Below, one piece after another: positions 1-9,907 of a stretch of DNA of 9,907 nucleotides. Each line of letters starts with the position of its first letter. Within the stretch, counting starts at the first letter, position 1. The stretch comes from a virus (taxonomy: Duplodnaviria; Heunggongvirae; Uroviricota; Caudoviricetes). The stretch lies in the IMG/VR virus record IMGVR_UViG_2534682160_000014. One strand, 5' to 3'. The translations under genes and the position numbers were made by a program. Below the pieces are notes generated by a model that had not been told where the DNA came from, did not search any database, and saw only the letters and a program-made list of their open reading frames with translations.

Positions 1-1242
1 ATGGCGAGAAAAACACCCCCATTAACCACAGTACAGATCAAAGCAGCCAGACCAGCAGAAAAGGAATACACCCTACAGGACGGCGGAGGGCTTTTTCTCC
101 TGATCAAACCGTCTGGATCAAAACTCTGGAGATTTTCCTACTACCGACCATCGGACAAAAAAAGAATATTGCTGAGTTTTGGATCGCTTGATGATGTTTC
201 CCTGGCTGATGCCAGAAAACGCCGTAGCGAGTACAGGGCGTTAATTCGTGCCGGAACTGACCCGCAGGACCACGAGAGGCAAAAAAGAGAGGCAGAGGCC
301 CGAAGACAAGGGAACACGTTCGAAAATGTGGCAACAGCATGGTACCAGGTGAAAATCAGCCAGAATCTGGCCCCCAATACGATTAAAGACATCTGGCGAT
401 CGCTGGAAAAATATGTATTCCCGTTCATCGGCAACACGCCAATAGACACCCTGACCGCTCGCAGGTTTGTTGAGGTGCTTACCCCCATCAAGGAACGTGG
501 CAACCTGGAAACGCTCAAGCGAGTTTTACAGCGTGTAAATGAGGTAATGGATTACGCCGCCAATAGTGGGATGATTGATGCCAATCCGGCTATGAATGTG
601 CGTAAGGCGTTCCCCTCCCCTGTAAAAAAACATATGCCAACAATCCGCCCCGAACAGCTGCCGGAGCTTATGCAGGCTTTATCAGTATCGGCAACAGAAC
701 GGCAGACCAGATTACTGATTGAATGGCAGTTACTGACCGTAACCCGTCCCGTTGAAGCATCGTCGGCACGCTGGGAAGAAATCGACATGGAGGCGCAACG
801 CTGGACCATACCCGCCGGACGCATGAAGATGCGCCGCGACCACGTTATCCCGCTTTGTGACCAGGCTATGGCAGTGCTGGAGGCTATGAAACCAATCAGC
901 CACCACCGCGATTATGTTTTCCCGAGTCTGAAAGCCCCACGGCAGCCGATGAACAGCCAGACAGCAAACGCAGCATTACGACGCATGGGGTTCGCTGGCG
1001 TGCTGGTGTCTCATGGATTACGCGCCATATTCAGCACAGCAGCGAACGAGGAAGGATTCGAGCCGGACGTAATCGAGGCGGCACTTGCCCACGTCGACAC
1101 CAACGAAGTCAGACGGGCATACAACCGGAGCAACTACATAGAAAAACGCGTGGTGCTTATGCGCTGGTGGGGCGAATTTGTCGAGGCTGCGGCGACGGGC
1201 GTAACCCTCGCCAGTGGTAAAAGGGGTATCCGAGCCGTTTAG
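1..1242 (+). CDS. int: Tyrosine site-specific integrase, P4-like family
   Basis: 413-aa ORF from the ATG at position 1 to TAG at 1240-1242. The C-terminal region carries catalytic-type motifs (HGLRAIFSTAA; AYNRSNYIEKR with the presumed nucleophile Tyr), and the N-terminal ~90 aa is basic and arm-binding-like, as in P4-type integrases. Confidence 0.93.
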   Translation: MARKTPPLTTVQIKAARPAEKEYTLQDGGGLFLLIKPSGSKLWRFSYYRPSDKKRILLSFGSLDDVSLADARKRRSEYRALIRAGTDPQDHERQKREAEARRQGNTFENVATAWYQVKISQNLAPNTIKDIWRSLEKYVFPFIGNTPIDTLTARRFVEVLTPIKERGNLETLKRVLQRVNEVMDYAANSGMIDANPAMNVRKAFPSPVKKHMPTIRPEQLPELMQALSVSATERQTRLLIEWQLLTVTRPVEASSARWEEIDMEAQRWTIPAGRMKMRRDHVIPLCDQAMAVLEAMKPISHHRDYVFPSLKAPRQPMNSQTANAALRRMGFAGVLVSHGLRAIFSTAANEEGFEPDVIEAALAHVDTNEVRRAYNRSNYIEKRVVLMRWWGEFVEAAATGVTLASGKRGIRAV

Positions 1243-1319
1243 CTGTACAGAAAACCAGTAAAAACTACGAAAACCATTTAAAACCGTCGTATAATTGCAT
1301 CACATTTAACGACGAGGCC

Positions 1320-1571
1320 TTGAAAAATGAAACCGTTAAGATGCAAACAAATTTCAGATGCAATTGCGACGGGCTGCAACTGGCCCTGATGGTTCAGCAT
1401 GAATTTTGGTCAACCTACGATCCGGAGGACAGAACGACGGCCCCATCAAAAAAACAGGTAGTAGATTTCCTGGTATCCCGTGGAGCTTCCAGAAATCTGG
1501 CTGTAAGTATTGATAAGGTTGTACGTCCGGCATCCATGAAGACCGGAGGCAGGCCCAAAAAATGGCGGTAA
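1320..1571 (+). CDS. Hypothetical small basic protein (83 aa from TTG 1320; 76 aa if the first ATG at 1341 is used)
   Basis: Open frame ending TAA 1569-1571, immediately followed by a strong + strand intrinsic terminator. No recognisable family. Start codon uncertain because neither candidate has a strong SD. A TATAAT hexamer lies at 1293-1298. Confidence 0.45.
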   Translation: MKNETVKMQTNFRCNCDGLQLALMVQHEFWSTYDPEDRTTAPSKKQVVDFLVSRGASRNLAVSIDKVVRPASMKTGGRPKKWR

Positions 1572-1580
1572 CAATCCTGA

Positions 1581-1605
1581 AAGCGGCAGAAATGCCGCTT
1601 TTTTT
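1581..1605 (+). terminator. Rho-independent terminator closing the int / small-ORF unit
   Basis: Perfect 8-bp stem aagcggca / tgccgctt with a GAAA loop (1581-1600), followed by T6 (1600-1605). Confidence 0.85.
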
Positions 1606-1633
1606 ATAAATCCCTTTCAAATCATCAATATAA

Positions 1634-1668
1634 AAAACGGTGTATACCGTTTAAAAACGGTGAGTACT
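1634..1668 (+). promoter_or_regulatory. Direct repeats (aaaaacggtg x2, 19 bp apart) with a short dyad aacggt/accgtt in the alpA upstream region; candidate regulator binding sites
   Basis: aaaaacggtg at 1634-1643 and 1653-1662; the first copy is followed by an aacggt-gtat-accgtt dyad. Located ~70-100 bp upstream of the alpA-like ATG at 1739. Confidence 0.3.
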
Positions 1669-1738
1669 GTTTTTCCCTGCATCCGATGATTTACCGTATT
1701 TCTCACCGGAATACACCGGATTAATGAGGTAAATCACG

Positions 1739-1944
1739 ATGGAAGCAATCAAAAAAGTCATCTTTCGCCAGGAAGTAAAAAACTTATCCATATTAAGGCA
1801 GACAGCACGCTGCAAAGCATGATCAACGCCGGAGAATTCCCGCAGGGTTTTCGTGTCGGTTTGCGCCGTCGCGGATGGTATGAGGAAGACGTAATCGCAT
1901 GGATGAAAGAACGCGAACAAGAAGCGCGCGGAACGACCGCTTAA
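1739..1944 (+). pseudogene. alpA: AlpA-family (phage transcriptional regulator) gene, apparently disrupted by a 1-nt frameshift in an A6 tract, or a sequencing error at the homopolymer
   Basis: ATG at 1739 with an SD (GAGGT, 1726-1730) opens a frame reading MEAIKKVIFRQEVKN... that stops at TGA 1820-1822. The AlpA-like HTH and C-terminus (…DSTLQSMINAGEFPQGFRVGLRRRGWYEEDVIAWMKERE…) are in the -1 frame, open from 1688 to TAA 1942-1944 but with no ATG/GTG/TTG start upstream of 1819. The frames can be joined at A6 (1777-1782); one extra A gives a continuous 68-aa AlpA-like protein. Confidence 0.55.
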
Positions 1945-1969
1945 CATATATAGGGCAAATGATGAACAT

Positions 1970-1995
1970 AAAAAAAGCGGCCCCGAAATGGAGCC
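1970..1995 (-). terminator. Probable intrinsic terminator for the leftward operon ending at 2066
   Basis: On the minus strand: GGCUCC-AUUUC-GGGGCC hairpin (includes a G-U pair) followed by a U7 run (plus-strand A-run 1970-1976). Lies ~70 nt downstream of the minus-strand stop at 2066-2068. Confidence 0.4.
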
Positions 1996-2065
1996 ACCTT
2001 TCTGAACAATTAACCCGCTGCGCCGTATGTGTCAACAATCATAAGCCTGGGCATGATAACCGCGA

Positions 2066-2269
2066 TCAGGCTGGTGGGCAATTATCTTTCTTGTTGGGGC
2101 CGTATTGTGCTGCCATTTTCATCCGTTCAGAACGTGAATATTTTTTTAGAAACTCATCAAGGACAAAAGCGCATGGTGCGAATCTTTCTGATTCATGCTC
2201 GAGCGCCATATTTTCGTGCTCTCTGTTCGTTTTTTGCGATGGTGTATCGATTGATTCTTTATTGGTCAT
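2066..2269 (-). CDS. Hypothetical small protein (67 aa), second gene of leftward module B; paralog of the 2720..2947 product
   Basis: ORF MTNKES…NCPPA. The start ATG is 9 nt downstream of the conserved 44-nt element. It shares the MTN start and an internal C-A-x-x-x-x-E-x-L block with the 75-aa paralog. Confidence 0.5.
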   Translation of the reverse strand: MTNKESIDTPSQKTNREHENMALEHESERFAPCAFVLDEFLKKYSRSERMKMAAQYGPNKKDNCPPA

Positions 2270-2277
2270 TGTGTGTA

Positions 2278-2321
2278 CCTGTAAAGCAATGCGCCGTAGT
2301 ACCTCACGCCACGGCGCTGAT
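2278..2321 (-). repeat. Conserved 44-nt intergenic hairpin element, copy 1 (between the RHH stop and the small-protein start)
   Basis: mRNA sense: AUCAGCGCCGUGGCGUGAGGUACUACGGCGCAUUGCUUUACAGG. 7-bp stem GCGCCGU/ACGGCGC, 13-nt loop containing GAGGU. Matches 2956-2999 at 43 of 44 positions, with identical placement (begins 5 nt after the upstream stop, ends 9 nt before the downstream ATG). Confidence 0.7.
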
Positions 2322-2326
2322 GTTTT

Positions 2327-2500
2327 TTATCCTTTGGGTTCAATACCGCGTTGCTGTAATTCTTTTCGGAGTACTCGCTTGATCCAGGTGGCTAAAGAAG
2401 TGTCACCGTCTGCTTTCGCTGCCTCTTCAAGTTGTGCTCTGAATTCTTCTGGTAGCCGCATTTGGTATGGAGGCGATCGCTTTTTCAATGGTGTTGACAT
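2327..2500 (-). CDS. Arc/Mnt-like ribbon-helix-helix transcriptional repressor (57 aa)
   Basis: Not in the ORF track (short). Translation from ATG (complement of 2498-2500): MSTPLKKRSPPYQMRLPEEFRAQLEEAAKADGDTSLATWIKRVLRKELQQRGIEPKG. The PYQMRLPEEF beta-strand followed by two helices matches the Arc-type RHH pattern. The start codon sits inside a palindromic operator. Confidence 0.7.
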   Translation of the reverse strand: MSTPLKKRSPPYQMRLPEEFRAQLEEAAKADGDTSLATWIKRVLRKELQQRGIEPKG

Positions 2501-2546
2501 GGTAATTACCCTTAATTACTATAGTTACATGGTAATTACCATTGTA
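2494..2546. promoter_or_regulatory. Divergent promoter/operator region of module B
   Basis: Perfect 10-bp palindrome ggtaattacc at 2501-2510 and 2531-2540 (each preceded by acat), plus a partial copy taattac at 2514-2520. Plus strand: TTGACA (2494-2499) - 17 bp - TACTAT (2517-2522). Minus strand: TTGTTT (2568..2563) - 16 bp - TACAAT (2546..2541). Operators overlap both promoters and the RHH start codon. Confidence 0.6.
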
Positions 2547-2562
2547 CTTACCGTTATACAAA

Positions 2563-2609
2563 AAACAACGCCCCGCAGTGGTGGCTCACATACGGGGCGT
2601 CTAACCAAA
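2563..2609. repeat. Conserved hairpin element M2, copy 1; terminator-like on the minus strand and 5' leader on the plus strand
   Basis: Outer stem cgccccg (2569-2575) / cggggcg (2593-2599), inner stem gtg/cac, variable apical loop. On the minus strand it is followed by UUGUUUUUUGU. The paralogous copy at 3303-3349 has identical stems and a different apical loop. Confidence 0.6.
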
Positions 2610-2680
2610 CCATTAATTGAGGTAACGATTATGGCTATAAAAGAGCATAGCTTACTCTTTATACACACACAAACGCCCCG

Positions 2681-2700
2681 GAAACGGAATAATCCGTTTC
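2681..2700. terminator. Hairpin (8-bp stem gaaacgga / tccgtttc, loop ATAA) just downstream of the 2720..2947 minus-strand gene; possible terminator or attenuator
   Basis: Perfect inverted repeat seen directly. U/G-rich sequence follows on the minus strand and a T-rich stretch on the plus strand. Function not resolved. Confidence 0.35.
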
Positions 2701-2719
2701 ATAGTTCGGTTTTGTGTAC

Positions 2720-2947
2720 TCATCCTGGCGGGCGATTCTTACGGGACTTTAGCCGCCGTGGGCAGCTTGCTAAAAATGCCTCCAACGCGAATAGTCCAGG
2801 TTTCATTTCTATCGGTATTAGTTGGATATTCAGAGGATTAGCCAGTTCGGCTTCAAGGCGAGCACAGGTTTCTAACTGCCTTTGCCGAATGATTTCATCT
2901 TCTTGCGTCTGCGTGTCTTGTATTGGTGATAGTGTGTTGTTGGTCAT
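2720..2947 (-). CDS. Hypothetical small protein (75 aa), second gene of leftward module A; paralog of the 2066..2269 product
   Basis: ORF MTNNTLSPIQ…; the ATG is 9 nt downstream of the conserved 44-nt element copy 2. Confidence 0.5.
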   Translation of the reverse strand: MTNNTLSPIQDTQTQEDEIIRQRQLETCARLEAELANPLNIQLIPIEMKPGLFALEAFLASCPRRLKSRKNRPPG

Positions 2948-2955
2948 GGTACTGC

Positions 2956-2999
2956 CCTGTAAAGCAATGCGCCGTAGTACCTCACACCACGGCGCTGAT
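2956..2999 (-). repeat. Conserved 44-nt intergenic hairpin element, copy 2
   Basis: Differs from copy 1 at a single loop position (GGUGUGAGG vs GGCGUGAGG in mRNA sense). Same spacing to the flanking stop and start codons. Confidence 0.7.
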
Positions 3000-3004
3000 A
3001 GTGA

Positions 3005-3184
3005 TTATTCTGATTCTTTGGCCTTGCGGCGCTGGCGGCGTTTGATCTCGCCTTTTGCTGCCGTAACTAGAAATCCGGCGGTACTTTCGCCAGGTTCTTT
3101 AAGTTGCTCAATATCGGTCATTACCTCATGCGGGATTCTGACCGTTGTCATTTGTGATTTTGCGTTCTTTGCACCTGTTGCCAT
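3005..3184 (-). CDS. Ribbon-helix-helix-like small DNA-binding protein (59 aa), first gene of leftward module A
   Basis: ATG (complement of 3182-3184) preceded by SD AGGAGAA. Translation MATGAKNAKSQMTTVRIPHEVMTDIEQLKEPGESTAGFLVTAAKGEIKRRQRRKAKESE has a beta-strand (TVRIP) plus two-helix pattern and a basic tail. The 220-aa track ORF 3005..3667 is a spurious upstream extension. Confidence 0.6.
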   Translation of the reverse strand: MATGAKNAKSQMTTVRIPHEVMTDIEQLKEPGESTAGFLVTAAKGEIKRRQRRKAKESE

Positions 3185-3204
3185 TTCTGGTTCTCCTGAT
3201 AATC

Positions 3205-3297
3205 GGTGTATTTCAGTATACGCAAAAAAAAAGATAAAAAAAGTCTTGCGGTGTATTTCACTTGAATGTAGATTTAAAAATGAAGGTGAAATACACC
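3205..3297. promoter_or_regulatory. Divergent promoter/operator region of module A
   Basis: ggtgtatttca at 3205-3215; ggtgtatttcac at 3250-3261 with its perfect inverted partner gtgaaatacacc at 3286-3297 (24-bp spacer). Plus strand: TTGCGG (3246-3251) - 17 bp - TAGATT (3269-3274). The operator sequence is different from module B. Confidence 0.55.
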
Positions 3298-3302
3298 TAA
3301 AA

Positions 3303-3349
3303 CAACAACGCCCCGCAGTGATGGGAACACATACGGGGCGTCTAACCAA
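3303..3349. repeat. Conserved hairpin element M2, copy 2
   Basis: cgccccg (3309-3315) / cggggcg (3334-3340) with inner gtg/cac. T-rich on the minus-strand 3' side. Followed on the plus strand by an SD (GAGGAG) and the ATG at 3371. Confidence 0.6.
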
Positions 3350-3370
3350 CAACGTAAACGAGGAGCCGTT

Positions 3371-3571
3371 ATGGTTGCCGTAAATCATACCCCACACCTT
3401 GTACACACACAAACTGCCTTTGTGTGGCGTTTTCTGGCACTGAGTGCCGGAGAATCTCAAATCATCCACGTAACCGCCTGGACGGAACGCGAAGCGCGTA
3501 ACCGTTGCCCGTCCGGTTGTGTTGCTGTATTTGCCGCCCGTATTCGCCAGGGGGAAACCTATGCACAATAA
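3371..3571 (+). CDS. Possible leader ORF (66 aa) at the head of the rightward operon
   Basis: ATG with a good SD. The N-terminus MVAVNHTPHLVHTQT parallels MAIKEHSLLFIHTQT at the equivalent site in module B (ATG 2631). The rest has no recognisable features and overlaps the next gene's start. Coding status uncertain. Confidence 0.3.
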   Translation: MVAVNHTPHLVHTQTAFVWRFLALSAGESQIIHVTAWTEREARNRCPSGCVAVFAARIRQGETYAQ

Positions 3572-3800
3572 AACCACACCGGACGCAGCAGCCGCCGCGC
3601 TCACTACGCTGATGCACGCGCTGATTGATATTTCTGTTATTGCTGACAGGGCGCATAAGCACGCCACCAGTGAAACAGAATATGCAGGGGCTTTCGTTCC
3701 TCATTCGCTGGCGGTTATGCAACTTAGTGCGGATATGGCGCTGAATGAGGCCAAAGCCATCCTGATTGCTGATTGTGAAAATGGGGGGGGTTATGCGTGA
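3561..3800 (+). CDS. Hypothetical protein (79 aa from ATG 3561; the track gives a GTG start at 3519)
   Basis: ATG 3561 preceded by AGGGGGAA. Ala-rich helical protein. The stop TGA 3798-3800 overlaps the next start. Confidence 0.5.
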   Translation: MHNKTTPDAAAAALTTLMHALIDISVIADRAHKHATSETEYAGAFVPHSLAVMQLSADMALNEAKAILIADCENGGGYA

Positions 3801-4554: not shown

Positions 4555-5960
4555 AACTGGCACCGAACGTAAAACGATTACCGAAAGATAAATACACCGA
4601 TGCGATTATTTTTGCGGGTATTGATGCTCATTCATTCGCAGAGCATTACATCATTGCACAGGCCAAAAAAGCAGGCGATCCAGTCCCTCCCGTTTATCTG
4701 GGGCGTTATCAGTTAAGCGAACTGGATAACCTCCAGATTGTTGATGATGGGCGATACAGGGCGACGGTGATACGTGCCGGAAATATTGAAGAGCCGCAGC
4801 TGTTAACCATCGCCACGAAACTGGCGATCGCCGGAGTCCAGGAGGCGCGGCTACTTTCTGAAAATTTAGAATTGCTGGAGGAATGGAGCGACCAGCTTCC
4901 ACGGCTTAGGGAGGCATGGGAACGCGGGGAAAGCCTGGTCATGAAAAAAATCCCCCAGCGAAAAACCAAGCTACCGATGAGCGTTGGATCTACCGGATAC
5001 GACACACAGCTTGATTACGTGGTAAAGGGGATTATTCCGGCATCGTCGCTTTGCAGCATATACGGGGCGAGCGGTTCCTATAAATCATTCCTTGCCGGAT
5101 CGTGGGCGTGTCACGTTTCCACGGGCCGCCAGTGGGGAGGCCGCAGGGTGGCGCATGGCGCTGTTCTCTATGTGGTTGGTGAAGGCGGTATAGGCGTTCC
5201 GCGTCGTGTAAAAGCCTGGGAGGTTGTGCACGATGAGCAGGTGAAAAATCTGTATCTGGTAAACCGTCCCATCTTTCCGGCTGCCCCGCTTGATATTGAT
5301 GAAATGGTTATCGCTGCCAGCCAGGTGGAGCGGGAAACGGGTAAACCGGTCCGAATGATTATTCTGGATACGCTGGCGCGTTGCTTTGGCGGCAATGATG
5401 AAAATGATTCCCGTGATATGGGGGCGTTTATCCGTGGGTGTGACGAACTGAAACGGCGCACAGGGGCCACGGTGCTGGTGGTTCACCATTCCGGCAAGGA
5501 TGAGACGAAAGGCGCGCGCGGTTCCAGTGCATTTCGTGCATCACTGGATGCTGAATACCGGATACGCAGGGAGGACGCAGGAAGCGAAGCGCTGGTTATC
5601 TCATGCACCAAAATGAAGGACGCGGAGGAACTCAAAGAAGCCGCATATGACTTACGCGTGGTGGAGCTTTTTACCGACGCTGACGGTGAGTTAATCACGT
5701 CGCTGGTGGTGGTGGATAAGCCGCGCCCTCCCGTTGAACTGGAGCGCATCGAGGAGGCAGGGAACAAGACGGAGAATCACGCCGCGCTATGGCAGTGCAT
5801 CAGAACACGAACAGCACACGGGGAGGCGTGCACTATCGCCCTTCTCCGCGACGATATGAAAAAGCTGGGGTATGAGATGAAGCACTTCCGGCGCTGGCTG
5901 TACAAGCTGGAAAATGATGGCGTAATCGTTATTGACGGTGATGACGTGCGCCCGCTGTAA
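4551..5960 (+). CDS. Replication initiator / helicase-like ATPase (RepA / AAA_25-like, RecA-fold) of the island
   Basis: 469 aa. P-loop-like GASGSYKS (5064-5087), and HHSGKDETKGARGSSAF, a motif typical of RepA/DnaB-like AAA_25 ATPases. An iteron array starts immediately downstream of the stop. Confidence 0.75.
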   Translation: MKLAPNVKRLPKDKYTDAIIFAGIDAHSFAEHYIIAQAKKAGDPVPPVYLGRYQLSELDNLQIVDDGRYRATVIRAGNIEEPQLLTIATKLAIAGVQEARLLSENLELLEEWSDQLPRLREAWERGESLVMKKIPQRKTKLPMSVGSTGYDTQLDYVVKGIIPASSLCSIYGASGSYKSFLAGSWACHVSTGRQWGGRRVAHGAVLYVVGEGGIGVPRRVKAWEVVHDEQVKNLYLVNRPIFPAAPLDIDEMVIAASQVERETGKPVRMIILDTLARCFGGNDENDSRDMGAFIRGCDELKRRTGATVLVVHHSGKDETKGARGSSAFRASLDAEYRIRREDAGSEALVISCTKMKDAEELKEAAYDLRVVELFTDADGELITSLVVVDKPRPPVELERIEEAGNKTENHAALWQCIRTRTAHGEACTIALLRDDMKKLGYEMKHFRRWLYKLENDGVIVIDGDDVRPL

Positions 5961-6165
5961 AAAGTGGGGAGTAAAAGTGGGGAGAGTGGGGGATTTAACA
6001 AAATTGAAACATAATTACCCACTTTCCCACCTGTATACACCCAAAAAAGTGGGGAGTAAAAAACATATTGAAAAACATAACGTTAGAATCACAAAAAAAA
6101 GAGGTGGGGAGACGGTGGGTAATTTCAAAAAGTGGGGAGCAAAAGTGGGGAGTAGTGGGGAATGA
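5960..6165 (+). repeat. Iteron-type replication origin (ori)
   Basis: Eight or more direct copies of (A)AAAGTGGGGAG and variants at about 5963, 5976, 5985, 6048, 6103, 6131, 6145 and 6154; one inverted partial copy (cccacttt, 6018-6025); AT-rich spacers at 6001-6017 and 6057-6100. Positioned directly 3' of rep. Confidence 0.75.
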
Positions 6166-6413
6166 ACAGAAAAACCAGAGATAAGACAGCGCCAAAATAT
6201 AAAGCGTTAGACATGACAGAGCACGCCTTAAAGGTGGCAATCAGAACGATAGACCGCCACGCGGGGGAAGGATACGCGAAGGAACATCCCGACCTGATAA
6301 GCGCATTCATGACCACAGCAGCGGCAAACTTTGCCACGCTGACAGAACGGGAGATTGCCGAAGCGGAACAGGTAACAACCATCAACGTTAAAACCGGAGA
6401 GGGGGCAGTATGA
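6162..6413 (+). CDS. Hypothetical protein (83 aa)
   Basis: ATG 6162 lies inside the last iteron (GGAG 8 nt upstream). The stop overlaps the ssb start (ATGA at 6410-6413). Confidence 0.5.
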   Translation: MNRKTRDKTAPKYKALDMTEHALKVAIRTIDRHAGEGYAKEHPDLISAFMTTAAANFATLTEREIAEAEQVTTINVKTGEGAV

Positions 6414-6820
6414 CGGCACAGATAGCCGCTTACGGGCGGCTGGTGGACGACCCGCAGGTAAAACAGACCAGCAAGGGCACACCAATGACGCTGGCTCGTA
6501 TGGCGGTATCGCTGCCATGCAGCCAGGCACAGGACGGACAGGCGACGTTATGGCTGTCGGTCATCGCATTTGGCAAGCAGGCCGACTACCTGGCTAAACA
6601 TCAAAAAGGCGATGTTGCCAGCGTATCCGGCACGATACAGGTTAGCCAGTGGACCGGACAGAACGGGGAAACGCGGCAGGGTTATCAGGTTATCGCAGAC
6701 AGTGTAATCAGTGCCAGTGCTGCCCGTCCTGGCGGGAGCCGACGCAAGACCACAGGCACACAGGGTAATCAGCCACCAGCTGGAGGCGATGACCCCTACG
6801 GTGACAATATTCCTTTCTGA
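6410..6820 (+). CDS. ssb: Single-stranded DNA-binding protein
   Basis: 136 aa. OB-fold-like N-terminal region (…GRLVDDPQVKQT…WLSVIAFGKQADYLAKHQKGD…), Gly/Pro-rich linker, and an acidic C-terminal tail DDPYGDNIPF matching the SSB DDDIPF-type tip. Confidence 0.8.
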   Translation: MTAQIAAYGRLVDDPQVKQTSKGTPMTLARMAVSLPCSQAQDGQATLWLSVIAFGKQADYLAKHQKGDVASVSGTIQVSQWTGQNGETRQGYQVIADSVISASAARPGGSRRKTTGTQGNQPPAGGDDPYGDNIPF

Positions 6821-6828
6821 ACATCATG

Positions 6829-6851
6829 GCCGGAGAAAATCCGGCTTTTTT
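6829..6851 (+). terminator. Rho-independent terminator after ssb
   Basis: gccgg-agaaaat-ccggc hairpin followed by T6 (6846-6851). Confidence 0.8.
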
Positions 6852-6856
6852 GTAGG

Positions 6857-6926
6857 TACTCCTGGTGGGGGTGGCCTGTCCACGGGGCGGGAGGGCGCGG
6901 AAAAAGGCGCATTTTTTGATTTTTAT
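6857..6926 (+). repeat. Conserved G-rich repeat R, copy 1 (immediately after the terminator)
   Basis: tactcctggtgggggtggcctgtccacggggcgggagggcgcggaaaaaggcgcattttttgatttttat. About 85% identical over ~65 bp to 9393-9460, at the same distance from the preceding stop codon. Confidence 0.7.
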
Positions 6927-7030
6927 GGCACCATCACCACCACTATAAGCTATTGATATATTGAGAAATAAAAATTTTTAGTGTCGGATCAGGTTGTTTT
7001 TGTTCATCGCTGGAACGTTCCCGAAAACAT

Positions 7031-7086
7031 TTACAAAAAAACAGGCGCAAAAAAAGCGCCCCCGATTGCTGTTACCGGAGGCGCTT
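7031..7086. terminator. Terminator- or attenuator-like alternative hairpins
   Basis: ggcgc-A7-gcgcc hairpin (7044-7060) with a U-run on the minus-strand side (7031-7043). The same gcgcc segment can instead pair with ggcgct (7079-7084), which is followed by TTTT on the plus strand. Confidence 0.3.
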
Positions 7087-7279
7087 TTACACGACAAAGG
7101 AGTTTTTATCGCCAGGATGACGAGTCTTAATATTGCTTCAATGGCAAAAATGCGTCAATGGCTTTGCCTCTCTGAGAATAATCAGAAAAAACATAATCTG
7201 ATTTTCAGGTAGAAAATGATTTATCTATTACTTTTATCGATCAATAATGATGCCCGTTAATCAAAACGGAGGCGGATTT

Positions 7280-7474
7280 ATGCCAGAGAACAACACCAGA
7301 AAGCCGGATAAAAGTGCCACGGTACACATAGACGCCGGAACTATGGAGAAGATCGAACGCTATCAGCAGTTCATCAAAGATAATCACCCGGGTATGCCAG
7401 TACCCACGAAAGGACAAATCACACGCAGCGCGGTTGAATACTGGTACCAGGCAACGTTAGGAGCCTGGCTATGA
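7280..7474 (+). CDS. Hypothetical small protein (64 aa; the track ORF starts at 7247), translationally coupled to the protease
   Basis: ATG 7280 with SD GGAGG 7 nt upstream. The stop overlaps the protease start (ATGA at 7471-7474). Function unknown; a small DNA-binding role is only a guess. Confidence 0.5.
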   Translation: MPENNTRKPDKSATVHIDAGTMEKIERYQQFIKDNHPGMPVPTKGQITRSAVEYWYQATLGAWL

Positions 7475-8070
7475 AAACATGGTTTTCCATTAAGGCTATG
7501 GCAGATGTTGTCTATGTGCGTATTTATGACGAGATCGGCGGGTACGGTGTAAAAGCATCGGCACTTACTGACGAGATCAACGCGTGTGGTAATGCGTCTG
7601 AAATCCATCTTCGCATCCATTCACCTGGTGGCGACATCTTTGAAGGGCTGGCTATCTATAACGCCCTGAAAAATCATCCGGCAAAGAAAATTGTACACAT
7701 TGAAGGCATGGCGGCTTCTATGGCCTCGCTTATTGCCATGTGTGGCGATCACATCGTTATGCCTGAAAACGCGATGATGATGATACATGCCCCCCGTGGT
7801 GTTACTGCCGGAGTGTCGGGCGACGTTCGCCGCTTTGCTGACCTGATGGACAAGCTGGGCGACACGATGGCGGAAACCTACGCCGGAAGAACGGGCAGGA
7901 GCAAACAGGAGATCACCTCAATGATGGAGGCGGAAACCTGGATGGATGGCAATGAGTGTAAGGCTAACGGCTTCGCAGATGAGGTTATACCCGCGATTAC
8001 AGCAATGGCCCGAATTGAATCAAAACGAATCGGAGATTTTTCAAATATGCCGGAAAAATTAAAAGCATGA
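7471..8070 (+). CDS. ClpP-like (S14 family) serine protease; prohead maturation protease
   Basis: 199 aa with ClpP-type motifs: HSPGGDIFEGLAIYNAL, catalytic Ser context GMAASMASLIAM, His context MMMIHAPRG. Immediately precedes the capsid gene with an ATGA overlap. Confidence 0.88.
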   Translation: MKTWFSIKAMADVVYVRIYDEIGGYGVKASALTDEINACGNASEIHLRIHSPGGDIFEGLAIYNALKNHPAKKIVHIEGMAASMASLIAMCGDHIVMPENAMMMIHAPRGVTAGVSGDVRRFADLMDKLGDTMAETYAGRTGRSKQEITSMMEAETWMDGNECKANGFADEVIPAITAMARIESKRIGDFSNMPEKLKA

Positions 8071-9359
8071 TCAGCCAGAAAACTGGCAGTGGCGAACAGG
8101 AACGACTTAACGGAATCCGTGAATTGTTTGGCACCTTCAACGGAAGATATAACGACCTGGCTATAAGTTGTCTTGCGGATTCAGAATGTAGCGTTGAGAA
8201 TGCACGCGAACGCCTTTTACTCGCTATGGGTAAAGAATCAACGCCAACAAACAAAACCACCCCCGCAAATCTTTACTACGCGTACACGGGTAACGGCAAT
8301 ATAACCGGCGATGCCATGCGTCAGGGGCTTAATGCGCGTCTTGGTCACGAACGGGCCGAACGCGGTAATCCTTACGCCATGATGAGCCTTTTCGATATGG
8401 CACAGGCATCATTAACCCATCGTGGTATAAGCACGGGCAGCTACAGCACACGCTCGCAGATAGTAAACGCGGCATTCACCCACAGCAGCAGCGATTTTAC
8501 CGATATCCTTGCTGGTGGCGCTGAAAAATCAGTGCTTGCAGGCTGGGAGCACAGCGGCGAAACATTCCGCCAGTGGACGAAAAAAGGTTCCCTTTCAAAC
8601 TTCCGGGAAGCCCGCCGCGTTGGTATGAATGGCTTCTCAACGTTAAACAAAGTGCCGGAAGGGGCAGAATATAAATACATCACCACCAGCGATCGCGGTG
8701 AACCCATCGCGCTGGCTACTTACGGGAATATTTTCAGCATTACCCGCCAGGCGATAATCAATGATGACCTTGATCAGTTATCAACGGTGCCAATGGCTAT
8801 GGGCCGTGCAGCATCAAGAACGGTGGGAAATCTGGTTAATCTGATGCTTACAAGCAACGTAAAACTTTCTGACGGAATAACGCTGTTTGACAAAAAACAC
8901 AGCAACCTGATTGAAGCAGGACTGACAACACCGGGACTTAGTGCAGCACGTCACCTGATGCGCACACAGAAGGACAAAAATGGCGAAGTGCTGAATATTG
9001 CGCCTAAATTCCTTTTAGTTCCGGCAGCACTGGAAGATCGCGCGTTGCAGATGATTAACTCAACCGCACCTTTCGGGGCTGATAAAAACAGCGGGATCTT
9101 TAACCCGTATCACAAGCTACTTGATATCATCGTCGATCCCCGCCTTGATGATATCAGCGAAAAACAATGGTACATGCTTTCCGCACAGGGAACGGACACA
9201 ATCGAGGTGGCTTATCTTGATGGCAATGACGAGCCTTACCTTGAACAGCAGGAAGGTTTTATCGTTGACGGCGTGGCCTGGAAAGTCCGTATTGATGCAG
9301 GTGTGGCAGCTCTGGATTATCGCGGTATGGTCAAATCAGGCGGGACAGATTCACTATGA
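8067..9359 (+). CDS. Major capsid protein, HK97-fold family (probably with N-terminal delta/scaffold-like region)
   Basis: 430 aa, directly downstream of and overlapping the prohead protease gene, which is the usual protease-capsid order in HK97-like head modules. Size and position support the call; the fold assignment is by family knowledge, not a search. Confidence 0.75.
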   Translation: MISQKTGSGEQERLNGIRELFGTFNGRYNDLAISCLADSECSVENARERLLLAMGKESTPTNKTTPANLYYAYTGNGNITGDAMRQGLNARLGHERAERGNPYAMMSLFDMAQASLTHRGISTGSYSTRSQIVNAAFTHSSSDFTDILAGGAEKSVLAGWEHSGETFRQWTKKGSLSNFREARRVGMNGFSTLNKVPEGAEYKYITTSDRGEPIALATYGNIFSITRQAIINDDLDQLSTVPMAMGRAASRTVGNLVNLMLTSNVKLSDGITLFDKKHSNLIEAGLTTPGLSAARHLMRTQKDKNGEVLNIAPKFLLVPAALEDRALQMINSTAPFGADKNSGIFNPYHKLLDIIVDPRLDDISEKQWYMLSAQGTDTIEVAYLDGNDEPYLEQQEGFIVDGVAWKVRIDAGVAALDYRGMVKSGGTDSL

Positions 9360-9365
9360 CAACAA

Positions 9366-9387
9366 GGCGGCACCAGCCGCCTTTTTT
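9366..9387 (+). terminator. Rho-independent terminator after the capsid gene
   Basis: ggcggc-acca-gccgcc hairpin followed by T6 (9382-9387). Confidence 0.8.
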
Positions 9388-9392
9388 GCGGG

Positions 9393-9460
9393 TCCTCCTG
9401 GTGGGGTGGGCCTGAACACGGGGCGGGCGGCGCGGAAAAAAGCGCATTTTTGTGATTTTA
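9393..9460 (+). repeat. Conserved G-rich repeat R, copy 2
   Basis: tcctcctggtggggtgggcctgaacacggggcgggcggcgcggaaaaaagcgcatttttgtgatttta; followed by a (CAT)4 run at 9466-9477. Confidence 0.7.
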
Positions 9461-9616
9461 TCGTCATCATCATCATGTGTGTAACCTGTTGTTTTTAATG
9501 TGGTTGATGCAAAAAAGATGATGATTGCGGTTAATTTTTGTTCGACATCTTTTAGCGTGACAGATTCTTTACAAAAAATCTGAGCTTGTTTTCTTCACCA
9601 GCGCGATGGGGGCACA

Positions 9617-9907
9617 ATGACAGAAGCCGAAATACTGGGATTAATCCGCCGCGTCGCCGGAATCAGCCAGCAGGCTGACGAACAGGCCACGCAGCCGGAC
9701 AGCATGACCGCCGAAAATTATGCGCGTGTTGTTGCTGAGGTGATGCGCCGTGATGGTATCCAGCTTAATGATGCGGATATGCGCGACATACGGATCCGCG
9801 TTCTGGAAATGCTGGCCTACAATCGCCGCGTTGAACTGTATCGGGAGAAAGAAAAATTACGTACCACTGGAAAAAGCCGGAGCGGTTACGGCGTTAACGA
9901 GTTGTGA
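9617..9907 (+). CDS. Hypothetical protein (96 aa); by position possibly a head-completion / head-tail connector type protein
   Basis: ATG 9617 with a GGGGG SD. Stop TGA at 9905-9907, the window end. The functional guess is from gene order after the capsid gene only. Confidence 0.45.
   Translation: MTEAEILGLIRRVAGISQQADEQATQPDSMTAENYARVVAEVMRRDGIQLNDADMRDIRIRVLEMLAYNRRVELYREKEKLRTTGKSRSGYGVNEL

Follow-up and report, generated by a model that had tools for sequence, protein, structure and literature searches.

The interruption of the alpA gene in the genomic island of Escherichia coli STEC 94C is very probably a base-calling or assembly artefact, caused by an undercalled homopolymer in 454 sequence data. 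The stretch of DNA analysed here (9,907 nucleotides, in the following called the window) is an exact substring of contig AFDU01000019.1 (GCA_000225105.2) from this strain, which has serotype O48:H21. An exact search with the 430-aa capsid fragment encoded in the window yielded this contig and no other. We infer that the 94C culture really carries seven A residues where the draft has six. According to this explanation, 454 reads would have undercalled A7 (GTA AAA AAA CTT, Val-Lys-Lys-Leu) as A6 in the 94C draft, and A7 would restore one uninterrupted gene of 207 bp for a 68-aa AlpA-type winged-helix regulator, WP_000387403.1. By analogy with the islands EcCICFT073 and EcCIEDL933, this AlpA would be induced by a helper phage, activate its own expression and start excision and replication of the island. 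An artefact is the best explanation because the assembly derives from the 454 platform only, the companion contractions all point in one direction and the tract is intact in relatives.

The alpA frame is broken at an A tract in the deposited sequence

As deposited, the gene for the alpA-type regulator spans positions 1739-1944 on the plus strand (206 bp) and is frameshifted. Its ATG (1739-1741) is preceded by a Shine-Dalgarno-like GAGG at 1726-1729 on the plus strand, 9 nt ahead of the start codon, and the zero frame translates to MEAIKKVIFRQEVKNLSILRQTARCKA, comprising 27 codons up to a TGA stop at 1820-1822. The first 14 residues encoded by this upstream frame (1739-1822, plus strand), MEAIKKVIFRQEVK, constitute the genuine N-terminus of AlpA, and the remainder is out-of-frame read-through. 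The adjacent frame is open through the A tract and ends with TAA at 1942-1944. The first ATG, GTG or TTG that it contains is the ATG at 1819, which defines an ORF of 41 aa (1819-1944, plus strand) that is annotated as ECSTEC94C_2586, 'hypothetical protein', and corresponds to the C-terminal 41 residues of AlpA. When one A is added to the A6 tract at 1777-1782, the translation becomes MEAIKKVIFRQEVKKLIHIKADSTLQSMINAGEFPQGFRVGLRRRGWYEEDVIAWMKEREQEARGTTA, with 68 aa.

All of this agrees with the first-pass annotation, which had described the Shine-Dalgarno motif and the ATG at 1739 opening the frame of 27 codons, had placed the break exactly at the A tract and had obtained the 68-aa protein with one extra A. 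Its statement that the adjacent frame has no usable start is likewise right, since the earliest ATG, GTG or TTG of that frame lies at 1819. The split is a true property of the deposited sequence and not a reading error of the first stage. A missed start codon for the downstream frame was considered and rejected: no ATG, GTG or TTG precedes the one at 1819, and the homologues as well as the protein structure 8c3t align from Met1 of the upstream frame.

The A tract is one base longer in related genomes

Of 5426 complete E. coli genomes, 276 contained a stretch of 441 bp around alpA, and the best 40 of these 276 matches were 99.8% identical to the window and one base longer. The finished genomes of O111:H- 11128 and strain 12867 equal the window across the aligned stretch except for A7 in place of A6, and both annotate a 207-bp CDS, WP_000387403.1, under the name 'AlpA family phage regulatory protein' or 'helix-turn-helix transcriptional regulator'. 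The translation of this CDS agrees with the repaired 68-aa protein in all residues, so that joining the two frames by one A, as originally suggested, reproduces residue for residue the intact protein that is annotated in relatives. Exactly this protein was found on at least 1000 contigs. Sequence comparison thus points to a true alpA gene of 207 bp encoding 68 aa, identical to WP_000387403.1.

The A6 tract of the window (1777-1782, plus strand) is A7 (GTA AAA AAA CTT, V-K-K-L) in every close relative inspected, and it is the probable site of the one-base undercall. With a query of 92 bp centred on the tract, none of the 276 complete E. coli genomes matched the A6 version without a gap; 83 complete-genome records matched at 95-99% and 193 at 90-95%. 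For the near-identical allele (95-99%), gap-free matches accordingly amounted to 0 of 83 complete genomes, and those inspected carry A7. In all alleles seen, the codons for Lys14-Lys15 form part of a conserved run, which is A7 or A8. A second A6 tract in the same gene, at 1751-1756, has the same length in finished relatives. The first-pass annotation had considered that the island might be locked off, phase-variable at the A tract or dependent on ribosomal slippage, and had named A7 in related genomes as the observation that would speak against these proposals. Related genomes do have A7, and none of the three proposals is supported as a description of strain 94C.

Homopolymer contractions recur throughout the window

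In 454 chemistry, the length of a homopolymer is read from the light intensity, and runs of six or more identical bases are often miscounted. The 94C assembly is based on 454 Titanium reads only; according to PMC3491183, the draft (AFDU00000000) was generated on the '454 Titanium FLX' platform, with Celera 6.0 as the assembler. The nearest relative over the whole window (DACYXH020000001.1, in the following L022) is colinear and, with 9 substitutions over 9907 bases, 99.85% identical. Indels between the two sequences are restricted to six one-base homopolymer contractions, and all six are in the window. Besides the alpA tract, where A7 in L022 is opposed to A6 at 1777 on the plus strand, these are A9 instead of A10 at 3224-3232, T5 at 6997-7001 instead of T6 in L022 and all relatives compared, A7 at 7049-7055 instead of A8 in L022 and most relatives, A5 at 8054-8058 (plus strand) instead of A6 in all relatives, and A5 at 9852-9856 (plus strand) instead of A6 in relatives. 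The last of these changes the C-terminus of the ORF at 9617-9907, which has 96 aa in the window and 93 aa in relatives.

The contraction at 8054-8058 splits a second gene, which encodes a fusion of a ClpP-like prohead protease and a major capsid protein (7471-9359, plus strand). It is present as two parts of 199 and 430 aa in the window, and the NCBIfam profile NF045540 matches both halves in colinear order. An uninterrupted gene for 629 aa is present in FWSEC0008 and 88-3493 as well as in nine further assemblies with an identical 469-aa helicase. For eight of these nine assemblies, the fetched stretch extends to alpA, and each of them calls a 68-aa gene there. Addition of one base at each of the six tracts of the window yielded a 68-aa AlpA identical to that of L022, a terminal ORF of 93 aa and a protease/capsid fusion of 629 aa with 2 differences from L022. 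The split of the protease/capsid gene is the same kind of artefact as the split of alpA.

Compared to the finished genome of FWSEC0008 over the window and 10-kb flanks, 8 of 8 homopolymer differences were contractions in 94C. As a control, comparisons between finished genomes carrying the same islands gave 1-3 homopolymer indels per 117-175 substitutions, in mixed directions. Because these controls correspond to about one homopolymer indel per 100 or more substitutions, approximately 0.1 real homopolymer indels would be expected at 9 substitutions, compared to the six that were observed, all of them contractions. In the flanking core genes, of which 5.3 kb were compared, all seven homopolymers of 6 or more bases were unchanged; this is compatible with the per-tract error rate of roughly 15% in the island and does not set the island apart.

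The pattern is that of 454 miscalls in draft genomes: length errors of one base, all in a single direction, affect only homopolymers of 5-10 bases, arise at a much higher rate than substitutions and give the impression of frameshifts in genes that relatives carry intact. For the 94C genome, the use of this platform is documented, and we found nothing that differs in kind from such miscalls.

The 41-aa fragment occurs in other error-prone drafts

The 41-aa fragment was located at five places, including the 94C contig, and the protein records carrying it are those of STEC_94C, DEC8A and KFV31455.1. Between the draft locus AIGF01000028.1 (L006) and the finished genome of O111 11128 there is 1 substitution, and in addition the draft has 4 homopolymer contractions. 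In the Logan assembly of SRR066813, 4 of 4 homopolymer differences were contractions. JNNK01000021 had both tracts expanded, the first from A6 to A7 and the second from A7 to A8, and expansions of the tracts were seen in only one draft (L008). A metagenome scaffold with the fragment is uninformative on the tract because it begins inside alpA. A variant of the 41-aa fragment has been deposited for STEC_DG131-3, the genome of which originates from the same 454 project as that of 94C (PMC3491183). Several homopolymer miscounts were found at each of the fragment loci that were checked (L006, L008 and L009). Given these miscounts and the origin of DG131-3 from the 454 project, off-length calls of the A7 allele follow error-prone drafts and not phylogeny. 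For DEC8A (AIGF), JNNK01 and SRR066813, the sequencing platform is suggested by the error pattern.

A further off-length record is that of P0010 (MDW9215001.1), for which a 67-aa 'AlpA' beginning with MEAIKSHLSPGSKKLIHIK has been deposited. Such a protein would arise if both A tracts (corresponding to 1751-1756 and 1777-1782) were one base short, with a compensated double frameshift that scrambles residues 6-13. This double contraction is probably another assembly artefact.

A homopolymer sequencing error had been rated as equally possible from the outset. Considering the 454-only assembly, the six contractions and the error-laden sister drafts, a miscount is by far the best explanation.

Alternative explanations for the interrupted frame

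A genuine one-base deletion in 94C would make alpA a pseudogene and leave an island that is locked in the chromosome and cannot be induced by a helper phage. Deletion of alpA abolished induction and transfer of PICIs in the islands that were tested (PMC6092414; cf-PICI preprint 10.1101/2022.09.08.507074), and so the phenotype predicted from a real deletion matches the locked state that was initially considered. Furthermore, four finished genomes of O26 type share a probably real and inherited contraction from A8 to A7 at the homologous tract. We nevertheless regard a genuine deletion in 94C as quite improbable, considering that six contractions were seen where about 0.1 real homopolymer indels would be expected, that the assembly consists exclusively of 454 data and that none of the 83 complete genomes has a gap-free A6. 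The fragment ORF is otherwise found in drafts that bear miscounts, and DG131-3, which has the variant, was part of the 454 project on 94C.

The O26-type frameshift affects a sister allele, WP_000387479.1, which is more common than the allele of the window and has A8 (GTA AAA AAA ATT) at the tract. Among approximately 198 complete genomes with this allele, four have A7 and were flagged as 'frameshifted' by PGAP, namely FWSEC0001, MBT-5, EH2252 and 05_3471 (L011, L013, L014 and L015), all of them finished and from different laboratories. In these sequences, alpA lies at about 2501-2706 in L011 and at about 6001-6206 in L013, L014 and L015. The assembly of FWSEC0001 was polished with Illumina reads (PMC6787312). 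The three A7 genomes for which long flanks were available are identical over 12 kb except for one 10-bp repeat unit in EH2252, and when compared to RM8426 they have three further homopolymer states in common. Since four independent finished assemblies agree, the change from A8 to A7 in the O26:H11-type genomes is probably one inherited and real frameshift of alpA. It resembles the condition of the window in that one A is lost from the same Lys14-Lys15 codon pair with the same predicted consequence. However, it consists of a change from A8 to A7 in the other allele and is common to four finished assemblies, whereas the change in the window is private to a 454 draft.

It is highly improbable, in our assessment, that the poly-A run at Lys14-Lys15 represents a real mutational switch, by which host lineages occasionally or reversibly silence the satellite through frameshifting of its activator. 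If it did, the O26:H11-type contraction would be a fixed example and the A6 of 94C possibly another. Judging from the O26-type genomes, the tract can fail for real, and the data suggest one event and not switching.

The tract might also be a contingency locus, in which reversible slipped-strand changes between A7 and A6 would switch the inducibility of the satellite within populations. With 7-8 A, the run is on the short side for frequent phase variation in E. coli with proficient mismatch repair. The conserved A7 or A8 run at Lys14-Lys15 in all alleles seen could be taken as an indication of such a locus, as could the recurrence of off-length tracts in databases (A6, A8 and the double contraction in P0010) and the one real contraction that became fixed in an O26 sublineage. 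Outside the O26 clade, however, off-length calls were found only in drafts with several other miscounts, and among finished genomes they amount to 0 of 83 for the A7 allele and 4 of 198 for the A8 allele. The four suggest a single event, because they are identical over 12 kb except for the one 10-bp unit in EH2252. A two-way length polymorphism among accurate assemblies of close relatives, by which a phase-variable tract would be recognised, was not observed. This makes phase variation a very remote prospect.

Recoding of the A6 allele into full-length AlpA, either by a -1 frameshift on A AAA AAC (1777-1783) or by transcriptional slippage, has a practically negligible probability. Once A7 has lost one A, the zero frame does contain a canonical X XXY YYZ heptamer (GTA AAA AAC), at which a -1 shift would enter exactly the AlpA frame, but the fold of the 77 nt downstream is not better than that of shuffled sequences (z = 0.29; 121 of 200 shuffles fold at least as well), and since all relatives inspected encode AlpA in one frame, with no two-frame arrangement among them, nothing appears to be programmed here. 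The heptamer in phase is thus accompanied neither by a downstream structure nor by a conserved two-frame organisation. The A tract is also too short for efficient transcriptional slippage, and the AGGA at 1770-1773 is closer than the distance at which -1 shifting is promoted in dnaX.

The repaired protein is a probable, divergent member of the AlpA family

Against the Pfam profile PF05930 (Phage_AlpA), the repaired 68-aa protein scored 17.8 bits (E = 0.003), below the cut-off of 21 bits. The match is weak and covers nearly the whole profile (protein residues 11-56, profile positions 7-51 of 51). HTH_17 scored 17.3 bits compared to a cut-off of 27, and no NCBIfam profile matched the repaired AlpA. 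The best PDB match in a phmmer search, 8c3t, was not significant (E = 0.07, 23% identity) and is colinear over residues 1-61 from Met1; a PDB profile search with close homologues brought no improvement over the single sequence for this entry. An AlphaFold model of the repaired protein had a pLDDT of 72, corresponding to moderate confidence, and its best fold match was again 8c3t, with TM scores of 0.63/0.73, an rmsd of 3.2 A over 57 columns and a non-significant E-value of 0.87. The next fold matches were MerR-family proteins, mycobacteriophage Xis, BldC and RacA domains, which belong to the same winged-helix class. The entry 8C3T, best in both sequence and fold, is the excisionase of GIsul2 and was deposited as 'AlpA family phage regulatory protein'; it is described as an excisionase, whereas the AlpA of PICIs is described as a transcriptional activator. 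In a protein search, which returned 19 clusters, homologues were restricted to E. coli/Shigella-type records, and Lys14-Lys15 and the HTH region show no variation among them. A scan of GTDB species-representative genomes confirmed no relatives.

With about 70 aa, a helix-turn-helix domain and a position shortly after the integrase gene on the same strand, the protein resembles the AlpA regulators of EcCICFT073 and EcCIEDL933, and as in those systems the gene is part of an island with the order int-alpA-replication genes at a tRNA gene. The identical protein is called 'AlpA family phage regulatory protein' by RefSeq. Its sequence is divergent, as reflected by the 17.8 bits for Phage_AlpA. The assignment in the first-pass annotation, an AlpA-like HTH regulator of a PICI, is supported by these comparisons. 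In EcCICFT073 and EcCIEDL933, a helper phage turns on AlpA, which stimulates transcription from its own promoter and without which the islands are neither induced nor transferred (PMC6092414; 10.1101/2022.09.08.507074). From its position and family, AlpA of the window may be expected to act in the same way.

Organisation of the island around alpA

The left end of the island is formed by a gene for a tyrosine integrase of 413 aa (1-1242, plus strand), which adjoins tRNA-Pro(GGG) in the source contig. It is followed by a small ORF (1320-1571) and then by alpA (1739-1944), which is the position typical of AlpA-type regulators. Besides int, alpA and small genes, the island contains a gene for a RepA-family helicase (AAA_25), three iterons, ssb and the protease/capsid fusion gene, and, in relatives as in the source contig, it is flanked by tRNA-Pro(GGG) and yejO. 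PICIs of the Gram-negative type carry int, alpA and replication genes (pri-rep or helicase) in one orientation, occupy a specific attachment site, measure about 10-15 kb and have neither lysis nor tail genes; by its gene content and location, the island can be classified among them. A search for direct att repeats from tRNA-Pro to the right end gave none at a seed of 14 nt. A cf-PICI has a complete head and packaging module, with capsid, protease, portal, connectors, HNH, TerS and TerL. In its right part (6410-9907), the island falls short of this gene set: between ssb and yejO, the source contig and relatives contain only the protease/major-capsid fusion gene along with one small ORF, and no portal, terminase or connector is annotated before yejO. 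Other islands share the int-alpA left arm and have different right arms, such as terS and a 307-aa capsid gene in O111/O26 (L005, 11842-12540), and module shuffling among these islands is evident.

Upstream of alpA, a perfect 9-bp hairpin (AAAGCGGCA/TGCCGCTTT) with a T run behind it was detected at 1580-1605 on the plus strand by repeat search and in the sequence itself. It is probably the terminator of the small ORF at 1320-1571 and would isolate the transcription unit of alpA; a scan for consensus terminators did not list it. Between this hairpin and alpA lie operator-like repeats (1633-1723), which consist of two copies of a 20-nt unit, AAAAACGGTGTATACCGTTT, at 1633-1672, each partly palindromic, and two copies of a 10-nt unit, CACCGGAATA, at 1704-1723. 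A third copy of the 10-nt unit is present in FWSEC0008 and in the SRR066813 assembly. These repeats are candidates for an operator or for recombination-arm sites. A similar change in the copy number of a 10-bp unit (CACCGGAAAG) was seen just after tRNA-Pro in O26 genomes. A scan for sigma-70 promoters upstream of alpA found no promoter-like site on the plus strand, a result that is consistent with an activator-dependent promoter and does not constitute evidence for one.

Several further features of the island were observed. Three 18-nt copies of AAAAAGTGGGGAG(T/C)AAAA occur at 5959-5976, 6044-6061 and 6127-6144 with a spacing of 83-85 bp; the series starts in the final bases of the RepA-family helicase gene and continues downstream of it. 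They are probably the iterons of the island's replication origin. A diverged module is present twice (2259-2333/2937-3011 and 2560-2608/3300-3349), with conserved cores of 75 nt and 25+22 nt that are about 680-740 bp apart. The two copies are associated with small ORFs on the minus strand, one of them Arc/RHH-like (2327-2500) and, in relatives, YlcI/YnfO-like. A plus-strand ORF of 494 aa across these modules (1899-3383) looks spurious. Rfam searches gave nothing credible over the whole window at the gathering threshold, including no match for the diverged modules, and in the region 1560-3600 at E <= 1 the only hit was Atu_C8 with 24 bits compared to a cut-off of 50, again not credible.

At the junction of two small ORFs lies a poly-G run (3783-3790), which is followed by TT and the ATG of the second ORF. 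Among the compared sequences (L001-L025), the run varies in length, also between finished genomes; it is G8 in most assemblies, G9 in O111 11128, FWSEC0008 and RM8426, and G10 in L017. Either G7 or G10 would fuse both small ORFs to a product of about 150 aa, and in L017 a protein of 151 aa was called. The run may be a truly hypervariable tract, or its main role may be that of a Shine-Dalgarno sequence for the second ORF.

Implications

The gene underlying the split frame is an ordinary and already catalogued member of a known family. The interruption itself carries little biological weight, as the apparently 'locked' or recoded state would vanish after correction of the undercall. In 94C and its sister drafts (DEC8A, DG131-3 and SRR066813), approximately one homopolymer contraction per 1.5-2 kb occurs in these A/T-rich islands. 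Genes that are split at homopolymers in these drafts should be discounted before pseudogenisation, phase variation or recoding is deduced from them, and this caution covers the split protease/capsid gene of the same window. Credible biology surfaced elsewhere, in the alpA frameshift that is common to four finished O26-type genomes: it predicts that the satellite is non-inducible in this O26 sublineage.
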